A stretch of 64,000 bases of DNA from Candidatus Saccharimonadota bacterium (lineage in GTDB: Bacteria; Patescibacteriota; Saccharimonadia; CAILAD01; BJGX01), in the NCBI GenBank assembly GCA_016191105.1, contig JACPPH010000002.1, forward strand, positions 141,931 to 205,930, given 5' to 3'. Each line of letters opens with the position of its first letter. Position 1 is the stretch's first letter. The translations under genes were made by a program, and so were the position numbers. Positions 33,485 through 38,153 of this stretch are shown here, piece after piece. Under the pieces are notes generated by a model that saw nothing but the letters and a program-made list of their open reading frames with translations, ran no database searches and had not been told where the DNA came from.

Positions 33485-33815
33485 AAGCTATAAGCTCCTT
33501 TCATAGAAGTATTAGTTAATTAAATAGCGTTCTCGTTCGGTTGTGTATATGCAATGTAAAAGGACTTTTGTATCTATTGAGCAGTAATGGTACTATATTA
33601 TACGCTTTAAGTCAATAGATAATTGTTATGTTTTTGCAGGGTTTTTCGAAAGGCCCTGAGATCAAGTTTTTTATGAAAGCCTGATCTCAAAGACTTATAG
33701 TTTCGGGTGGGTGTCGTCCCGGAGACCGAAGTCTCCAGGACGAGCGACACCCAAGAGTGGACTCTGTGTGCCATCGCACCGCGAATTGAGTCCGCTAATT
33801 CGCGGTGTTTAAGCC

Positions 33816-35306
33816 CTAGGCGGGCTTGGGCGACGGACCGGGCGGGGCCGTCGTGGGTGGCACCGGCGCCGAGCTGGGCGGCGTTGCCCTGGTGGTGGGC
33901 GGGCTTCCCCCCGGGCACAGCTGCGGACAACCGGTGCTCGGGTTCGGCACTCCTGGATTGATGTCCGGGTTGGGCGGCCTGGGGGTCACCCCACCGCAGC
34001 CACTTGGACCACAGCCTTTCACCGGCGCCGGCACAGCCGGATTGCTGATAGGCTGCTGCTCGGCGATCTTGCCCTGAGGCTTGGTCGTCGGCGTCGTCAC
34101 CGTCGGCGGTGGGATGGTCGGCCCTCCCGTCGGCGGGGGCGTCACCGTCGGCGGTGGGATTGTTGACTCCGGTGGCAGGTTTGGCGGAACCGGCACCTGC
34201 GGCACGTTCGGCGTGGGCTTGAGCGACCCCCTGTTCCCGCACGAGGCGAAGAACATGATGTATGCGTTGTCCTTCCAGAACTTCACGTACAGCCGGGGCG
34301 TGCTGGTGACGTAGTCGAACTGCACCACGGTACCGTTTTGCACGACTGTGTTGTACAGGCGGGTACCCGCTGGCAACACTCCACGTTCCACCATGGAACC
34401 TCGAACGAAGTCCAGCACGATGAACAGATCCCAACCGGCCTTGGCGGCATCGCCGACCGGGCGGGGGTCCTCGTAGGGCTTGTCTTGGCTGGCCATGATG
34501 GTCCGCGCCGCATCGTCCAAGAATGCCGGGCTGCCAACACCCTTCAGGAGCAAGTCGGAGAACATGTCCTCCGGCGTGTTTCCTTGGATGCCGTTGAGCA
34601 CAACACACTTGGTCTCACACGTCACGCCCACTCCCTGTACGAGGCCACGGCGCTGGGCAATCTTCTGAACGAAGATGGCAAGGTCGACGGTGTCGGGCTG
34701 ATGCGGTGGCGCCGTGCTTGGCGGTGTGGTAGCCATAGTTGTTGGCGCAGCTGTGCCTTGCGGTTGTGTCCCGCTCGGTACTGCCGTGGTGGTGGAAGGA
34801 GCCGTGGTGTCGCTGGGCGATGTGCTTGGCGTTGAACCACCCCCGTTGCTGGTGGTGGTAGTGACGCCGGCCAGGATTGCGACGCACTTGGTGTCTGGCG
34901 GGTCCACTCCGAGTTGCTTGAGCTTGTCGGAGCTTTCCTGCACCACCTTGGCGTCGTCGCTGCCAACTCCCTGGCACAACTCGACTGTCAGCTTGAGACA
35001 TTCGGTCGGCGTGATGCCGGCCTCTTGCAGCTTCTTGTCGTCGTCGGAGTTGTTGGTGACTCCGATCCGCTTCTGGCAGTCCTCCAGACTCACCTTGGCC
35101 TTGCGCTCTTCGGTGGTTGCGGGCGGAACAGACGCGGTCGGCGCTGGCACCTGGGTGGTGTCGGAGCCTTGAGGCCCAGGTGATTGCTGGGTTGGTTGGG
35201 CACTCGCAGTGCCGCTTTTGGCTGCAATACCGGCTACACCCACCGCCCCCAAAAGGACAGTGAACACAACCGCGCAAGCAGCGAAGATCGCATGACCCCT
35301 GGTCAT
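33816..35306 (-). CDS. Signal-anchored secreted protein, Pro/Thr-rich linkers, Cys-containing domains, unknown function
   Basis: ATG at 35306 preceded by GGAGGTGA. MTRGHAIFAACAVVFTVLLGAVGVAGIAA anchor, a globular middle, and a PPPTVTPPPTGGPTIPPPTVTT tail. The ORF-track upstream extension to 35387 has no SD. Followed by an 11-bp perfect hairpin at 33777-33807. Confidence 0.7.
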   Translation of the reverse strand: MTRGHAIFAACAVVFTVLLGAVGVAGIAAKSGTASAQPTQQSPGPQGSDTTQVPAPTASVPPATTEERKAKVSLEDCQKRIGVTNNSDDDKKLQEAGITPTECLKLTVELCQGVGSDDAKVVQESSDKLKQLGVDPPDTKCVAILAGVTTTTSNGGGSTPSTSPSDTTAPSTTTAVPSGTQPQGTAAPTTMATTPPSTAPPHQPDTVDLAIFVQKIAQRRGLVQGVGVTCETKCVVLNGIQGNTPEDMFSDLLLKGVGSPAFLDDAARTIMASQDKPYEDPRPVGDAAKAGWDLFIVLDFVRGSMVERGVLPAGTRLYNTVVQNGTVVQFDYVTSTPRLYVKFWKDNAYIMFFASCGNRGSLKPTPNVPQVPVPPNLPPESTIPPPTVTPPPTGGPTIPPPTVTTPTTKPQGKIAEQQPISNPAVPAPVKGCGPSGCGGVTPRPPNPDINPGVPNPSTGCPQLCPGGSPPTTRATPPSSAPVPPTTAPPGPSPKPA

Positions 35307-35529
35307 CCGATCACCTCCTTGTTGTTGTCTGGGTGATGTAAAGCTGCGAACTGGGTGCAGGTTTTCTCTCCTGTACTCAGCCCACATATCAGATTACACT
35401 CTTTTCGTCTATACACAAGTATAAATCTCACATTTGGGTTGAGCGGGTGGCGCCCGGCGGGAACTCGATCCGAAGATCGAAGCTCCCTGCCGGGACCACG
35501 AGGTAGGGGCCAGAACGTCATCCTGACCG

Positions 35530-36006
35530 CTACTTTGTGCCGTGCTTGAACAGCGCCGTGCAGCCGATGATGCCACCGATCACAAACGGGGCAAGAAATG
35601 CCACGATCCGTGGCCCGCCTGCGTCCGTGAGCATGGCAGCCACGACTGCACTGCAGATTGCTGCGAACACCGTTGCAAAGCAGCCCATGAGCACGCCCAC
35701 AAGGATGTGGAGGCTCTTGCCATTGGCTGGGTCTGCGCCGCCGCCAGCGGGTGGCGGCGGTGTGGCGGCATTGGCCGATGGATCGCGTGTGAGGAACCAG
35801 AAGGTCCCCCCTGCGCCACCCAGGCCAACCACCAGGGCGGTGAGGAATCCATACAGCCACGACCAATTGAGTCCTGCGACTACAAGGGTCACGAGCAGCA
35901 GGACTCCGCCAATCACCCCGCTGATGATCAGCTGGGTTTGCTGGTCGAGCCCACCTCCGGGCGATGGGGCCGGCGCGGCATAGCGCGCACGGTTGAAACC
36001 AGGCAT
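35530..36006 (-). CDS. Small integral membrane protein (about 4 TM), unknown function
   Basis: ATG at 36006 preceded by GAAGGTGG. 158 aa with four hydrophobic segments and a Pro/Gly/Ala loop. Followed by hairpin 35453-35494 with a central CGAA loop. Confidence 0.65.
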   Translation of the reverse strand: MPGFNRARYAAPAPSPGGGLDQQTQLIISGVIGGVLLLVTLVVAGLNWSWLYGFLTALVVGLGGAGGTFWFLTRDPSANAATPPPPAGGGADPANGKSLHILVGVLMGCFATVFAAICSAVVAAMLTDAGGPRIVAFLAPFVIGGIIGCTALFKHGTK

Positions 36007-36027
36007 AATGCCCACCTTCTTTCGTAT

Positions 36028-36106
36028 ATGTTCGGGAGCGGTACCTGGTCGTGAACTTCATTGTTCATGTGCCCTCACGGGGGCAATATACCAGGATAGC
36101 GATCCT
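36028..36106 (-). repeat. Promoter/operator/leader module, copy 1 (upstream of the 4-TM protein gene)
   Basis: Minus-strand reading: AGGATCGCTATCCT palindrome, TATATT, GCCCC, GTGAGGGCAC, stem-loop CATGAAC..GTTCACG, GACCAGGTACCGCTC, CGAACAT. Near-identical to 36469-36545. Confidence 0.75.
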
Positions 36107-36172
36107 GAAATTGTGGGTCACGAGCGGCCGCGCTCCGGGGTAAACCGGAGCACAGCCTCTCGCGTGGCGAGA

Positions 36173-36454
36173 TCACGTGAGCACTTGGTCGATGATCTCG
36201 AGCATTGCGGCCTTGAACGCCTTGTTGGCATCTTCGTCCACAACGTCCGGGAAGGACTTCAAGAAGTCGGGGCCACAGAGGTCGATCATGGCCTGCACGC
36301 CTTCCTTGTTGAACTTGACCGTGCCGCCGCCGCTGATCTCCAGTTGCTCGAGAGCAACCTTCTGCAGCAGCTCCAGGGCGCGGGCCTTCATGGCCGGGTC
36401 GGCGTCGGCTGTTGCCGACTTGGACTTCTCGTAGCGGTCTTTGCTGAACGCCAT
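36173..36454 (-). CDS. Small acidic protein (93 aa), paralogous to the C-terminus of the 415-aa protein
   Basis: ATG at 36454 preceded by AGGAGA. MAFSKDRYEKSKS...FLKSFPDVVDEDANKAFKAAMLEIIDQVLT. The long ORF-track extension (to 37117) is an out-of-frame shadow across the upstream gene. Confidence 0.65.
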   Translation of the reverse strand: MAFSKDRYEKSKSATADADPAMKARALELLQKVALEQLEISGGGTVKFNKEGVQAMIDLCGPDFLKSFPDVVDEDANKAFKAAMLEIIDQVLT

Positions 36455-36468
36455 GATGATTCTCCTGC

Positions 36469-36545
36469 ATGTTCGTGAGCGGTACCTGGTCGCGAACCGA
36501 AGTTCACGTGCCCTCACAGGGGCAATATACCAGGATAGCGATCCT
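36469..36545 (-). repeat. Promoter/operator/leader module, copy 2 (upstream of the 93-aa gene)
   Basis: Same module as 36028-36106. The stem-loop here is CGTGAAC-TTCG-GTTCGCG, so the loop sequence differs while the stem is retained. Confidence 0.75.
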
Positions 36546-36570
36546 AACATTCTGTTGAGTTGGCCGGGGA

Positions 36571-36599
36571 GCTCCGCTGCACACAGTGTGCAGCGGAGC
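36571..36599 (-). terminator. Perfect 14-bp GC-rich hairpin after the 415-aa gene (no U-tract)
   Basis: GCTCCGCTGCACAC-A-GTGTGCAGCGGAGC, 27 nt downstream of the TAG at 36627-36629 and immediately upstream of module copy 2. Confidence 0.6.
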
Positions 36600-36626
36600 C
36601 AACCCCGTTTACCGCTCCCGGTAAAT

Positions 36627-37874
36627 CTAGTCGTCGGCGAAGACCTCCTCGATGATGTCGAAGAACGCGGCGTAGAACACGTCGCGATCGGACTCGAAGT
36701 CACCGTTGGGATACTTCTCGAGGTAGAGGTTGAGGGCGCAGAACGCCACATCGGTGATCCCTTCCTCACTGAACGACCATGGCTTGCGAAGCGGGTCGCG
36801 CGCCCACATGCCGACGGGTGTGCGCTCGATGCACTGCTTGGCTGTCGCCACACGCGCGTCGAAGTTCGGTGGCCGAACATTGGAGCGTTGCTGTCCCGAA
36901 GGACCGCCGCGCGAACCAGCACCCGAACCACTGCTACCACCCGGTCGACTCGACGAGCCGCCACTGGCGCCAGCACCCGACCCGGACTTGGGCCGTGCGC
37001 CTCTGCCAGAGGAGCCACCTTGCGAGCCGCGTGGTCGTTGCCCATTGCCGCCGTTGCGAACGAAGATCCCCTCGAGATTCTCTCGAGTGATGTCGTCGTT
37101 CCGGTCCGGATGGGCAAACGCCAAGACGCTTCGCCAGCAGAACTTGGCCCACTTCTTGCGGTCGCCGTAGGTGAACTTCTCGCCCTTCGGGTCCACCTTG
37201 CGAGCCTCGGCCTCGAAGATCACCATGATCTGGGTCATCCAACCCCGGTACTGGCGATACAAGTCCTGCTCTTCTGGTGTACGACGCGCGAAGGCGGTGA
37301 AGCGCGCCAGGTTGTCGTCGTCTCGTGGTGGCGCGCCGAACTCGGCATGCAAACCCTGGACACCCGAGAAGTTCTCGCGGATGCCAGAGATCGCGGTGTT
37401 CAGCTCTGTGATCTCTCGATCGTTCATGTCGTCTCCCTCCTGGGGGTCTTTGGTTCCCCCCGGAGGGGATGTAGGTTCTGGTTCTTCTGCAAGATCGAGC
37501 ATGAGCGTGACGATGCCACGCTTAACCATCTCGAAGCTGGCGTTGGCTTTGCGTGTCGCGTTGAGGTTGACCCCAACAATCCGACGCACGAGCCGCCACG
37601 GCTCGGGGTCTTGCTCGGTCGCTTGTACGGGTATGCCTTGTGCTTCGAGCCATGGCACCCAGTCTTCGTAGGAAAGGGTTGGCTCGGGGTCTTCGCCTTC
37701 TGGTGGTGTGTCACCTGCCCCTGAATCTTCAAGGACTTTACCAAGTGCCACCAAGAAGTCTTCTTCACCCACCTGTCCGTCATCGGCAAGCTTGTCGCCC
37801 AGTTCAACAATGAGCTTGGGCTTAAGGTCGATCGAAACTTCCAGGTCAGCACATAGCGTTTCGAGATGCGGCAT
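36627..37874 (-). CDS. Acidic 415-aa protein with a J-domain-like HPD motif and a Gly/Ser-rich linker, function unknown
   Basis: ATG at 37874 preceded by GAGGAGGG. KKWAKFCWRSVLAFAHPDRNDD (HPD codons 37112-37104) resembles DnaJ helix II plus the HPD loop. It is followed by a roughly 55-aa G/S/R-rich stretch and a C-terminal domain alignable to the 93-aa protein. Confidence 0.7.
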   Translation of the reverse strand: MPHLETLCADLEVSIDLKPKLIVELGDKLADDGQVGEEDFLVALGKVLEDSGAGDTPPEGEDPEPTLSYEDWVPWLEAQGIPVQATEQDPEPWRLVRRIVGVNLNATRKANASFEMVKRGIVTLMLDLAEEPEPTSPPGGTKDPQEGDDMNDREITELNTAISGIRENFSGVQGLHAEFGAPPRDDDNLARFTAFARRTPEEQDLYRQYRGWMTQIMVIFEAEARKVDPKGEKFTYGDRKKWAKFCWRSVLAFAHPDRNDDITRENLEGIFVRNGGNGQRPRGSQGGSSGRGARPKSGSGAGASGGSSSRPGGSSGSGAGSRGGPSGQQRSNVRPPNFDARVATAKQCIERTPVGMWARDPLRKPWSFSEEGITDVAFCALNLYLEKYPNGDFESDRDVFYAAFFDIIEEVFADD

Positions 37875-38124
37875 TGCTTCCCTCCTCGGGTAGTGCCCCG
37901 GGAGGGGCGTCTTGTTTACTGTTACCTACAGGAGCCTGCGTACGGCATTCAATCTTGGGCGGCAAGATCGCTTACACGTACACAGGTGCCTGTAGGCAGT
38001 TTGTAAACTAAAAAGCAGGTAAAATAGCCTGTTCTATACGAACAAGCAACCCTCCTGCCTACTTATTTAGGGAGCGGATATTTCAAATTGAACGATCCAT
38101 AGCCTAAGCTATGAACTCGGAAAC

Positions 38125-38153
38125 AATATACTACAAAACTATCGTTTTGTCAA
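38125..38153 (-). promoter_or_regulatory. Consensus sigma70-type promoter pointing into island 1
   Basis: Minus strand: TTGACA (38153-38148), a 17-nt spacer, then TATATT (38130-38125). Lies just after the stop of the 38164-38511 gene, about 250 nt upstream of the 415-aa start. Confidence 0.5.

Follow-up and report, generated by a model that had tools for sequence, protein, structure and literature searches.

Among the described systems that come closest to the locus considered here are the 3'-UTR-derived small RNAs of enterobacteria (CpxQ, SroC), which are cut from mRNA 3' ends as a seed followed by a terminator, and the put RNAs of phage HK022, which are two-hairpin cis-acting antiterminator RNAs present in two copies per genome. 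Cis-regulatory leaders of the kind collected in Rfam, such as ribosomal-protein leaders and the orphan motifs of GC-rich intergenic regions, can be added to these, and the repeats described below share with such leaders the position of a sense-strand element between a stop codon and the next Shine-Dalgarno (SD) sequence, a structure kept by compensatory changes, and the occurrence of duplicated copies before co-located genes. The genomes of Saccharibacteria and other CPR bacteria are tiny and encode few recognisable regulators, the organisms depend on actinobacterial hosts for their way of life, and to our knowledge almost nothing is known about their gene regulation. An initial annotation of the DNA analysed here (a stretch of 64 kb, hereafter the window) had interpreted a pair of repeats as promoters overlapped by a shared repressor operator and followed by a short hairpin leader. 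We favour a different reading, to which we assign a probability of roughly 0.55, namely that the repeats are paralogous copies of a structured RNA leader of about 80 nt, encoded on the minus (gene-sense) strand and folding into a closed Y-shaped domain.

Results

The window belongs to a contig of Candidatus Saccharibacteria (TM7), and the repeats lie inside an island of four minus-strand genes with a GC content of about 61%. Gene 1 (36627-37874, with its stop codon at 36627-36629) encodes an orphan protein of 415 aa; gene 2 (36173-36454) encodes 93 aa and is paralogous to the ~45 aa at the C-terminus of gene 1; gene 3 (35530-36006) encodes 158 aa with four transmembrane (TM) segments; and gene 4 (33816-35306) encodes a Pro/Thr-rich protein of 496 aa with a signal peptide. 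The four island proteins had no match in Pfam and PHROGs, homology searches with the 415-aa and 93-aa proteins returned only self matches, no DNA-binding domain was detectable among the island proteins, and no reverse transcriptase (RT) domain was found in the neighbouring ORFs. The AlphaFold model of the gene 4 product had a pLDDT of 44 and was left unused. The island proteins are orphans and probably surface-exposed.

The islands of related genomes were located through gene 4 homologues, giving a comparison sample of six to seven lineages, two of them close, that includes L003, L010, L016, L019 and L020; the L003 contig begins within gene 1, and the 5' edge of its island lies outside that contig. 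The island occupies the same site in six related lineages, between a DUF5663 gene and an LPXTG gene, with a GC content of 58-71% across relatives whose genomes have about 45% GC, and with a GC3 of 0.69-0.85 it is compositionally foreign at a conserved locus. In all members the module sits on the sense strand between the upstream stop codon and the downstream SD, the 3' end of the domain lying 8-17 nt ahead of the SD of gene 2 or gene 3. The repeats have a period of 439-495 bp, and in L003 and L020 the N-termini of these two genes are shared. A phage or plasmid origin of the island was discarded after blastn against phages and plasmids gave no matches, and a viral origin after the exact operator pattern proved absent from viral contigs; three viral matches to a gapped pattern were attributed to chance, the covariance model scoring none at the matched position. 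A protein-based metagenome scan gave no match, and three metagenome loci with a conserved 19-mer of IGR-C were also set down to chance, having no blastn similarity to any island.

As initially described, two near-identical stretches are found at 36028-36106 and 36469-36545. They are 90% identical across the 77 positions that align, with an additional loop indel of 2 nt, and are direct copies that precede, on the minus strand, the 4-TM gene and the 93-aa gene, respectively. Within the 64 kb, exactly two occurrences each were counted for the 27-mer AGGATCGCTATCCTGGTATATTGCCCC and the 15-mer GACCAGGTACCGCTC (chance expectations of 0.00 and 0.07), and a covariance-model scan of the window with the module returned two matches, these two copies only. 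Copy A, the leader of gene 2, is a self-contained Y-shaped RNA domain at 36469-36547 (covariance model R1 match at 36471-36547, 78.5 bits), and copy B, the leader of gene 3, spans 36028-36108 (R1 match at 36030-36108, 79.2 bits) and has an A-type sequence, sharing 66-71% identity with the A copies, and 47-53% with the B copies, of L003 and L020. These identities indicate that the ancestral B-type copy in the window has recently been overwritten by A-type sequence, an event that explains the near-identity of the pair.

In the predicted domain, an irregular closing helix, formed by the former 'operator' box with CCUGGU on one side and ACCAGG with UACCGCUCC on the other, is topped by two hairpins, hp1 and hp2, stacked directly on each other. 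The box AGGAUCGCUAUCCU (copy A 36532-36545, copy B 36093-36106; all module elements are on the minus strand) provides with its 5' part (GGA, CG) the 5' strand of the closing helix P1', and its terminal CCU belongs to helix P2, whose 5' strand CCUGGU (copy A 36529-36534, copy B 36090-36095) has ACCAGG as its partner. The hairpin hp1 is UGCCC-CUGUGA-GGGCA (copy A 36509-36524, copy B 36070-36085), and hp2 is CGUGAAC-UUCG-GUUCGCG in copy A (36491-36508) and CAUGAAC-AAUGAA-GUUCACG in copy B (36050-36069). The 3' strand of P2, ACCAGG, is followed by the motif UACCGCUC(A/C)C (copy A 36475-36490, copy B 36034-36049, including ACCAGG), which is complementary to two partners, the box, with which it forms P1', and a distal strand, P1a. 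The minimum free energy (MFE) fold of copy A is the closed three-way junction (z = -2.8), and independent MFE folds of the single sequences recover the same helices.

Pairing in these helices is retained across the relatives through compensatory changes. In hp1, 100% of the cells are paired and six of eight pairs show changes on both sides (nine copies), and the corresponding values for hp2 are 97% and five of eight, with lineage-specific stems (CGUGAAC/GUUCGCG, CAUAAGCC/GGCUUAUG, CACAAGC/GCUUGUG, CAUUAC/GUAGUG) that keep their pairing. P2 shows the exchanges C-G<->G-C, A-U<->G-C and U-A<->C-G, and a further hairpin adjoining the SD in relatives (hp3) is 100% paired and covarying. When RNAalifold was run on the sequence-only alignment, the box paired with CG..UCC in the 3' motif, and P1' showed covariation of its outer pairs (UA<->AU, 3:3); box-motif duplex energies alone are weak (p = 0.007-0.56), and P1' was retained on RNAalifold and the pair counts, that is, on two covarying outer pairs. 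In the sequence-only MAFFT alignment of six copies, 94.7% of the cells were paired and 12 of 25 pairs changed on both sides, with a covariation score of 0.517 against 0.206 in shuffles (0/500), while slid controls reached 26-43% paired with this alignment and 22-56% across the structure counts overall. An alignment of nine copies that was in part made by hand, and hence biased towards the structure, gave 93.5% paired cells and 15/24 compensatory pairs (0/500 shuffles). Moreover, a covariance model trained on one clade found the untrained L019 copy of another (32.8 bits, E = 2e-7). Regarding strandedness, the sense-strand reading of the helices contains 18 G.U pairs against five A.C mismatches, an excess that by itself would favour the sense strand; however, the window copy B folds better in antisense (z = -5.2) than in sense (z = -3.0). 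Clade-2 A copies and L016 have one long hairpin in place of hp1 and hp2, the junction nucleotides are poorly conserved, and j3 varies in length and sequence. Searches of Rfam (4227 models) gave no relevant match for the window island at E <= 10 and none for L003, L016, L019 and L020 at E <= 1. The best reading of the module, judged from the sequences, is a putative family of structured cis-regulatory mRNA leaders outside Rfam.

The proposal that the hairpin now called hp2 is under structural selection was borne out, since its stem sequences differ fully between lineages with pairing kept, and both the further copies and the covariation that had been named as a check were found in related genomes. 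The hairpin had also been described as kept in both window copies, which holds for the seven pairs of copy A but only in part for copy B, with five pairs plus an A.C mismatch. The two stem differences do not form a compensatory pair, as they hit separate pairs (G-C to A.C and U.G to U-A); they are not covariation, which appears only with the related genomes.

The hexamer TATATT (copy A 36524-36529, copy B 36085-36090, minus strand), which had been taken for a -10 element, overlaps the RNA helices: the P2 5' strand ends with the initial T, the hp1 stem begins with the final T, and the ATAT in between makes up the P2/hp1 junction. The junction reads GAAAC, AGTTATT, GATCCCATC, TATCAAT, AGCTTGCT or ATTTAT in orthologues, TATATT occurring only in the window, and a consensus scan found no -35 hexamer 16-18 nt upstream in either window spacer; in the spacers of L003, L020 and L010 the promoter scan yielded only one weak 9/12 site. 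Neither conservation nor a -35 supports the -10 assignment. Besides, the supposed perfect palindrome AGGATCGCTATCCT differs at two positions from its own reverse complement, being a 5-bp inverted repeat AGGAT/ATCCT around the non-symmetric CGCT (a 5-4-5 dyad), and it does not abut TATATT, from which GG separates it. The shared repressor operator is not supported by the comparison with orthologues either, whose boxes (GGATAAGCTACC, GGCTCGTAACCC, GGCTCGAAATCC, AGAATCGTCTTGC) have lost the dyad symmetry and kept the pairing with the 3' end of the module; in clade 2, the dyad-keeping base is altered so that P2 stays paired (C-G to G-C). The 'extended -10' TGG and the 3' half of the 'operator' are the 5' strand of the covarying helix P2 and hence have to be part of the RNA, ahead of the start site that had been proposed.

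Recognisable promoters are found at the borders of the island. A canonical sigma-70 promoter, TTGACA-17-TATATT (38125-38153, minus strand, 11/12 matches), marks its 5' edge, with equivalent 11/12 promoters in L010 and L020; promoters of this quality occur only at island borders, and none is conserved in the internal spacers, where a weak promoter may lie in the AT-richer spacer upstream of the module. At the 3' edge, every relative has a strict AGGAT-N4-ATCCT dyad just upstream of the promoter, which fits a protein site as well as an RNA hairpin.

The distal partner of the 3' motif, P1a (GGGAGCGGUA, 36610-36619, minus strand), begins 8 nt past the stop codon of gene 1 and is separated by AA from the base of hairpin T (36565-36607, minus strand), which the resulting helix P1 encloses. 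Hairpin T contains the 14-bp perfect hairpin at 36571-36599 that had been reported and is indeed present; it has no U-tract, is followed by CCCCGGCCAAC and was not listed by the terminator scan. A corresponding hairpin T after gene 2 (36119-36164, minus strand) has 19 bp and no U-tract. The loop of T is a C(UUCG)G tetraloop in four of six lineages, and UUCG tetraloops are frequent in T and hp2. The long-range helix formed by P1a is the MFE solution in all six A-type spacers, and in the gene 1-gene 2 spacer P1a matches the motif much better than the local box does. Helix P1 occurs in three sequence versions in three clades (GGGAGCGG/CCGCUCCC, UGCUACAGGAGC/GCUCCUGUAGCA and CUGACGGGG/CCCCGUCAG), P1a and all motif copies changing in parallel, and cognate P1a-motif duplexes are more stable than non-cognate ones; comparison with shuffles gave p = 0.0015-0.054. 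P1a is a single copy within the island in each lineage; its bare 7-8-mer core is also found at other, unrelated places of the window and of L019. P1 was assessed from per-sequence folds, pair strings and duplex matrices; the formal column count including L016 was dropped, as MAFFT had shifted the L016 row.

A third copy of the motif, GGAUCG-N13-AUCC followed by GCUCCC, is located in the 5' leader of the island (38070-38098, minus strand), with CCGCUCCC at 38070-38077. Its duplex with P1a has an energy of -18.3 kcal/mol (shuffle p = 0.001), and the match is clade-specific in L020, L010, L019 and L016, in L010 preserved via two G.U pairs. Clade-specific pairing of P1a with the leader and IGR-B copies of the motif yields -18 to -24 kcal/mol, compared with -7 to -15 (shuffle p <= 0.0025). 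Overall, the cognate duplexes reach -17 to -32 kcal/mol, and non-cognate combinations from different clades give -7 to -22; the lowest shuffle p is < 0.0005. Between the 5'-edge promoter and gene 1, this leader also carries, past the motif, a terminator or attenuator hairpin with a U-tract (UUUUU; 38010-38058, minus strand), which is conserved in L010, L016, L019 and L020. Translational coupling, with the end of the upstream ORF pairing to the downstream SD, was rejected after the pairing proved no better than shuffles in most spacers.

Discussion

The four island genes most likely form one transcription unit, predicted to start at the 5'-edge promoter and to be gated by the U-tract attenuator of the leader, and the module probably acts via alternative RNA pairing. 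Pairing of the motif with either the box or P1a would remodel the leaders, and P1a could act in cis on the polycistronic mRNA or, instead, as the seed-plus-hairpin 3' end of the gene 1 transcript, so that genes 2 and 3 would be tied to the gene 1 mRNA in their translation or stability, as would possibly the read-through of the leader. The initial annotation had proposed that two genes are co-regulated independently of the 415-aa gene: the same regulatory element does precede both, but independence is not supported, the module 3' motif being predicted to pair with the strand between the stop codon of that gene and hairpin T. A more ambitious version, which we consider doubtful and advance tentatively, is a self-addressed RNA circuit in which P1a is the selector strand, the hyperstable hairpin its anchor and both constitute the 3' end of the gene 1 message, with three co-evolving motif sites in the 5' attenuator leader, the gene 2 leader and the gene 3 leader. 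If so, read-through and translation across the entire GC-rich island would be determined by the message of its first gene, and we know of no described counterpart in CPR/Patescibacteria of such an operon-internal, multi-site RNA-RNA control device.

The alternatives differ in how much of the RNA they accept. The same structures might serve a different transcriptional arrangement, in which T terminates transcription despite having no U-tract, the AT-richer stretch of 15-30 nt that separates T from the module holds a weak promoter, the module stabilises the 5' end of its own mRNA, and P1a with T forms the 3' end of the gene 1 transcript and, in the manner of a 3'-UTR-derived small RNA, acts in trans on its three motif sites. 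This arrangement is doubtful, though several observations fit it: the similarity of the window copies starts exactly at the base of the closing helix, most copies have AT-rich patches ahead of the box, P1a followed by a very stable hairpin has a seed-plus-terminator layout, and P1a matches three sites, two of them distant. If T were such a terminator, the modules would need their own promoter, a point against the preferred reading. Yet the spacer is too short for a full promoter and has no conserved -35 or -10, the promoters of this organism are otherwise textbook (11/12), and T is without a U-tract. The reading as DNA, that is, a TGG-TATATT extended -10 promoter with an overlapping palindromic repressor operator, a start just downstream and only the 7-bp hairpin as RNA, is unlikely. 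It can point to TGGTATATT as a good extended -10 in the window, to AGGAT-N4-ATCCT being exact in both copies, to the strong hairpin ahead of each copy and to the same dyad half-sites upstream of the LPXTG-gene promoter in all relatives; but orthologous copies lack TATATT and the dyad symmetry, a -35 is missing, helix P2 with its compensatory changes includes the TG and the ATCCT half-site and so makes them part of a selected RNA, a start inside hp1 would drop the covarying 5' arm of hp1, P2 and P1', and the island proteins have no detectable DNA-binding domain.

The closed three-way junction adjoining the SD, together with CUGAUGA at the P2/junction boundary in the A copies of L003 and L020, could also suggest the aptamer of a ligand-binding riboswitch or a self-cleaving ribozyme. 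We consider this very unlikely in view of the lack of an Rfam match (window, E <= 10; four relatives, E <= 1), the weakly conserved junction nucleotides with a variable j3, the single long hairpin of clade-2 A copies and L016, which ill fits a conserved pocket, and the presence of CUGGUAU rather than CUGAUGA in the window; hammerhead and other ribozymes were discarded on the last point, on the absence of GAAA between the hairpins and on the Rfam result. Least probable of all is that the repeats have no function and were left behind when a ~440-bp unit, comprising a gene end, a spacer and a gene start, underwent tandem duplication or gene conversion, or that they are a small MITE/REP-like mobile repeat. 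The paralogy of gene 2 with the C-terminus of gene 1, the N-termini that gene 2 has in common with gene 3 in L003 and L020, the period of 439-495 bp and the recent copying of A into copy B of the window all fit such an origin, but the duplication is old and common to all lineages, the helices have survived many compensatory substitutions, the two copies per 64 kb are always in the same two syntenic spacers, and there are no matches in phage, plasmid or viral collections. A mobile MITE/REP repeat was rejected in addition for having no dispersed copies and no terminal-repeat or target-duplication signatures. Other candidates were dismissed on direct inspection: ARAGORN found no tRNA-like element here, the defining features of an integron attC site are absent, and the differences between the copies (C/T, G/A, A/C and a loop replacement) are not confined to adenines as in the TR/VR pairs of diversity-generating retroelements, and the neighbouring ORFs have no RT domain.

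The preferred reading of the repeats as structured RNA leaders has implications for the biology of this phylum, in which covarying RNA structures without an Rfam match offer a concrete and testable example of post-transcriptional control. The island encodes orphan secreted and membrane proteins, and the locus may take part in the interaction with the host; if the tentative circuit is true, the proteins under its control would be orphans, probably exposed at the surface, that an epibiotic bacterium encodes at a conserved locus. There is also a lesson for annotation, as RNA helices can look, at the DNA level, like a convincing '-10 plus palindrome'.

Compared with known systems, the module departs from the cis-regulatory leaders of Rfam in matching none of the 4227 models, in being limited to one GC-rich island of one Saccharibacteria clade and in having a second, distal and co-evolving partner for its 3' strand. 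The likeness to a sigma-70 promoter with operator is found in the window alone, where TGn-TATATT stands beside a 5-4-5 dyad downstream of a hairpin, whereas the sequences concerned are part of covarying RNA helices. REP/BIME and Correia or MITE-like elements resemble it as short intergenic repeats whose RNA forms hairpins and which can influence mRNA processing, but the module has only two copies, at fixed syntenic positions. The HK022 put RNAs share with it two hairpins that abut without a spacer, two paralogous copies per gene cluster and potential terminator hairpins downstream; unlike put, with which it has no sequence or Rfam similarity, the module encloses its hairpin pair in a closing helix and, in some lineages, has one long hairpin instead of the pair. 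The small RNAs of the CpxQ/SroC type come close to P1a, whose 8-15 nt lie directly past a stop codon, are followed by a very stable hairpin and have several complementary, co-varying sites in 5' leaders. In contrast to these RNAs, the predicted targets of P1a are all confined to its own operon-like island, and one is only about 140 nt distant in cis; the putative seed is followed by a hairpin that has no U-tract, and we know of no small RNA chaperone in this phylum.

The GC-rich island and its genes

The window contig (locus tags HYX70_01140-01155) belongs to Candidatus Saccharibacteria, and the repeat lies in an island of ~4.4 kb with ~61% GC, against ~46% in the surrounding genome, and with a GC3 of 0.69-0.85 in its genes vs 0.45-0.51 in the flanking genes. 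Its four genes, all in one orientation, encode a protein of 415 aa (gene 1), a protein of 93 aa (gene 2; 36173-36454, minus strand) that is a paralogue of the gene-1 C-terminus (36627-36770, minus strand), a protein with four TM segments (gene 3) and a secreted, Pro/Thr-rich protein of 496 aa (gene 4). Neither Pfam nor PHROGs gave a match for any of the four proteins, and no DNA match to the island was found among phages, plasmids and viral contigs. Contigs carrying gene-4 homologues (35-52% identity) and two species-representative genomes have the same island in the same place, GC-rich in all and flanked in the relatives by a DUF5663 gene and an LPXTG-protein gene; the comparison covered 6-7 distinct lineages (the window, L003, L020, L016, L010, L019, and L001).

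Across the spans compared for GC (window 33700-38000; L010 7000-11500; L016 6500-11500; L019 3000-7500; L020 2500-7000), the island has ~60-65% GC (GC3 0.69-0.85) in ~45% GC genomes, at one syntenic site in lineages with 35-52% protein identity, and no amelioration is visible. The L016 island has five genes, owing to an additional gene-2-like ORF. The N-terminus MxGxF(T/Y)DDD is common to genes 2 and 3 of L003 and L020, and the similarities among genes 1, 2, and 3 (in L003, 1021-1066/1504-1549 and 1264-1291/1759-1786) point to a putative old tandem duplication with a unit of ~440-495 bp. Besides, the start region of gene 1, "GC hairpin + AGGAGGGAG + ATG", recurs in frame inside the gene (window 37418-37448, minus strand; L010 7276-7324 and 7687-7735; L016 7119-7159), which suggests internal starts nested within gene 1 or a fusion of tandem modules.

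The repeat and the promoter/operator reading

The module occurs on the minus strand upstream of gene 2 (copy A, 36469-36545) and of gene 3 (copy B, 36028-36106). The near-identity of these stretches was borne out: the 77 positions that align are 90% identical, with an additional 2-nt indel in the loop, and each long invariant block is found at exactly two places in the 64 kb vs ~0 expected; the repeat is real and non-random. Three details of the initial annotation need correction. The supposedly perfect palindrome AGGATCGCTATCCT has two mismatches to its reverse complement, being a 5-bp inverted repeat flanking a non-symmetric CGCT, and GG intervenes between this dyad and the TATATT that it was said to abut. 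Two stem differences between the hairpins of the copies are indeed present, but because they strike separate pairs (G-C to A.C; U.G to U-A) the copy B hairpin is weakened rather than compensated.

Every lineage has homologous, diverged elements in the gene1-gene2 (A) and gene2-gene3 (B) spacers. At the position of the proposed -10 hexamer, TATATT, the orthologous junctions read GAAAC, GATCCCATC, AGTTATT, TATCAAT, AGCTTGCT, and ATTTAT, so the hexamer is not conserved, and the proposed operator dyad loses its symmetry in orthologues (GGATAAGCTACC, GGCTCGTAACCC, AGAATCGTCTTGC). Moreover, the extended -10 "TG" lies in a strand of a covarying helix, as does the ATCCT half-site. Consensus scans of the window, L003, L020, and L010 placed 11/12 sigma-70 promoters at the island edges only and found no conserved sigma-70 promoter in the internal spacers. 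A sigma-70 promoter with operator thus failed on the unconserved -10 and dyad and the lack of a conserved spacer promoter, and this reading of the repeats is largely wrong.

A perfect (C)AGGAT-N4-ATCCT(G) dyad does occur exactly once per relative, at the island 3' edge (L001 2577-2590; L003 4132-4145; L010 11595-11608; L016 11557-11570; L019 7595-7608; L020 7106-7119), where the -35 of the LPXTG-gene promoter follows ~25 nt downstream. The window carries the dyad in its two spacers instead, and at the 3' edge, around 33650-33700, it has another inverted repeat, of 12 bp. Given that the 3'-edge dyad is perfect in all relatives, the dyad may have a protein-binding role.

A conserved RNA fold

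The claim of structural selection on a 5'-UTR hairpin held for a covarying fold far larger than the hairpin described. Separate MFE folds of each spacer recovered a closing helix, P2, in different versions (window CCUGGU/ACCAGG; others UACCUGAU/AUCAGGUA, UCCUGAC/GUCAGGA, and UUGCUGAU/AUCAGCAA), which in two-hairpin copies encloses two directly adjoining hairpins, hp1 and hp2. RNAalifold predicted the same three elements from a sequence-only MAFFT alignment of six copies and added an outer helix, P1', in which the former operator box (GGA, CG) pairs with the 3' end of the module, the 3' motif (CG, UCC), and whose outer two pairs show a UA<->AU switch. In this alignment 94.7% of cells were paired, with both-sided changes in 12/25 pairs, values reached by none of 500 shuffles, and slid controls were 26-43% paired. 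A hand alignment of nine copies gave 93.5% paired cells and 15/24 compensatory pairs (0/500 shuffles). A further hairpin adjoining the SD, hp3, is absent from both window copies and present in relatives, where it is 100% paired and covaries.

A covariance model from one clade found an untrained copy in another (32.8 bits) and, in the window, the two known copies only; no Rfam family matches the module. The full 80-nt window units fold into a closed Y (z = -2.8 and -3.0), so the repeat boundaries are RNA domain boundaries. The box/3' motif duplex energies are weak, and in copy B the antisense folds better than the sense strand; the tally of 18 G.U to 5 A.C pairs speaks for the sense strand. The window copies both belong to the A type, with 66-71% identity to L003_A vs 51-53% to L003_B. 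Because copy B resembles L003_A more than L003_B, it must have been recently overwritten, which accounts for the near-identity of the window copies.

A long-range helix and a third motif copy

P1a, a strand between the gene-1 stop codon and a strong hairpin, T, is a better pairing partner for the 3' motif than the box in each of the six A spacers. The helix formed with P1a, P1, exists in three clade-wise versions, GGGAGCGG(UA)/(UA)CCGCUCCC in the window, L003, and L020, UGCUACAGGAGC/GCUCCUGUAGCA in L010 and L019, and CUGACGGGG/CCCCGUCAG in L016; cross-clade duplexes are far less stable than the cognate ones, all of which outdo shuffles (p = 0.0015-0.054). Hairpin T, previously read as closing off a separate unit upstream, is thus enclosed by a covarying P1 reaching into the module. 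A C(UUCG)G loop, a hallmark of RNA, is present in 4/6 T hairpins. T does not qualify as an intrinsic terminator.

When the stop-to-T fragment is folded alone, P1a lies partly inside a weak local hairpin (window UUUACCG-GGAG-CGGUAAA, 36610-36628, minus strand; equivalents in L003, L010, L016, and L020), beginning 1 nt past the gene-1 stop codon in the window and L003. A ribosome terminating there could thus unmask P1a.

The clade-specific motif is also found in the island 5' leader, between the sigma-70 promoter (38153-38125, minus strand; 11/12 consensus) and a U-tract terminator hairpin (38058-38010, minus strand). It reads CCGCUCCC in the window (38070-38077) and L020, CCCCGUCAG in L016, and CCGUUUCUGUAGCAA in L010 and L019, where P1a pairing is kept via two G.U pairs. 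The motif complement occurs once per island, as P1a, while its bare 7-8-mer core turns up again at other, unrelated places in the window and L019. Cognate P1a/leader motif duplexes reach -18 to -24 kcal/mol vs -7 to -15 cross-clade (shuffle p <= 0.0025), and the B-spacer motif shows the same cognate-over-cross-clade pattern. The flanks of the short motif copies are unrelated to each other, which makes gene conversion unlikely; selection for pairing with a common partner is the simplest explanation.

The gene-1 leader (window 37875-38153, minus strand) comprises, in order, the promoter, a leader of ~100 nt, the terminator hairpin and a ~70-nt hairpin (37996-37925). The latter is conserved among L010, L016, L019, and L020; in the window its arm sequences differ and the inverted repeat is kept, unresolved by automatic alignment. 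This layout looks like that of a putative attenuator of transcription, or of a riboswitch, controlling the entire island, and it could alternatively be a separate small RNA gene. Conservation within the island is highest in the gene3-gene4 spacer (window 35307-35529, minus strand; L010 9765-10005; L003 2284-2515; L019 5767-6010; L016 9752-10005; L020 5306-5560), which is AT-richer than the remainder and shows 91-95% identity over ~200 nt between lineages with just ~50% identity in their gene-4 proteins. A long hairpin (CATATTAGG...CCTTAATATG) and a block, ATATGTGGGCTGAATCTTGGAGAGAAAACCAAG, lie in this spacer, which has no Rfam match and is more diverged in the window than in relatives.

Interpretation and comparison with known systems

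The comparisons demonstrate the module fold, its covariation and the co-evolving complementarities, and the modules are best explained as paralogous structured mRNA leaders. Weighing against this explanation are the few lineages (6-7), the weak box/motif energies, the antisense fold of copy B and the 3'-edge dyad. From sequence we infer the transcript architecture, the transcribed strand and the regulatory output, with the island as a probable single unit of transcription whose leader resembles an attenuator. In the proposed mechanism, the 3' motif would alternate between two partners, the local box and P1a; this would remodel the leaders and couple the gene-1 message to genes 2 and 3 and perhaps to read-through of the leader. 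P1a could act in cis or, alternatively, in trans as a seed-plus-hairpin 3' end.

The module does not qualify as a MITE/REP repeat, a DGR repeat pair or a known ribozyme. We rate the leader module as a new family of RNA motifs, belonging to a general kind that is already known; the multi-site complementarity of the motif is unusual and deserves experimental follow-up. Overall, the module would work like a structured cis-regulatory leader, and P1a and T are arranged in a way reminiscent of seeds in 3'-UTR-derived sRNAs.
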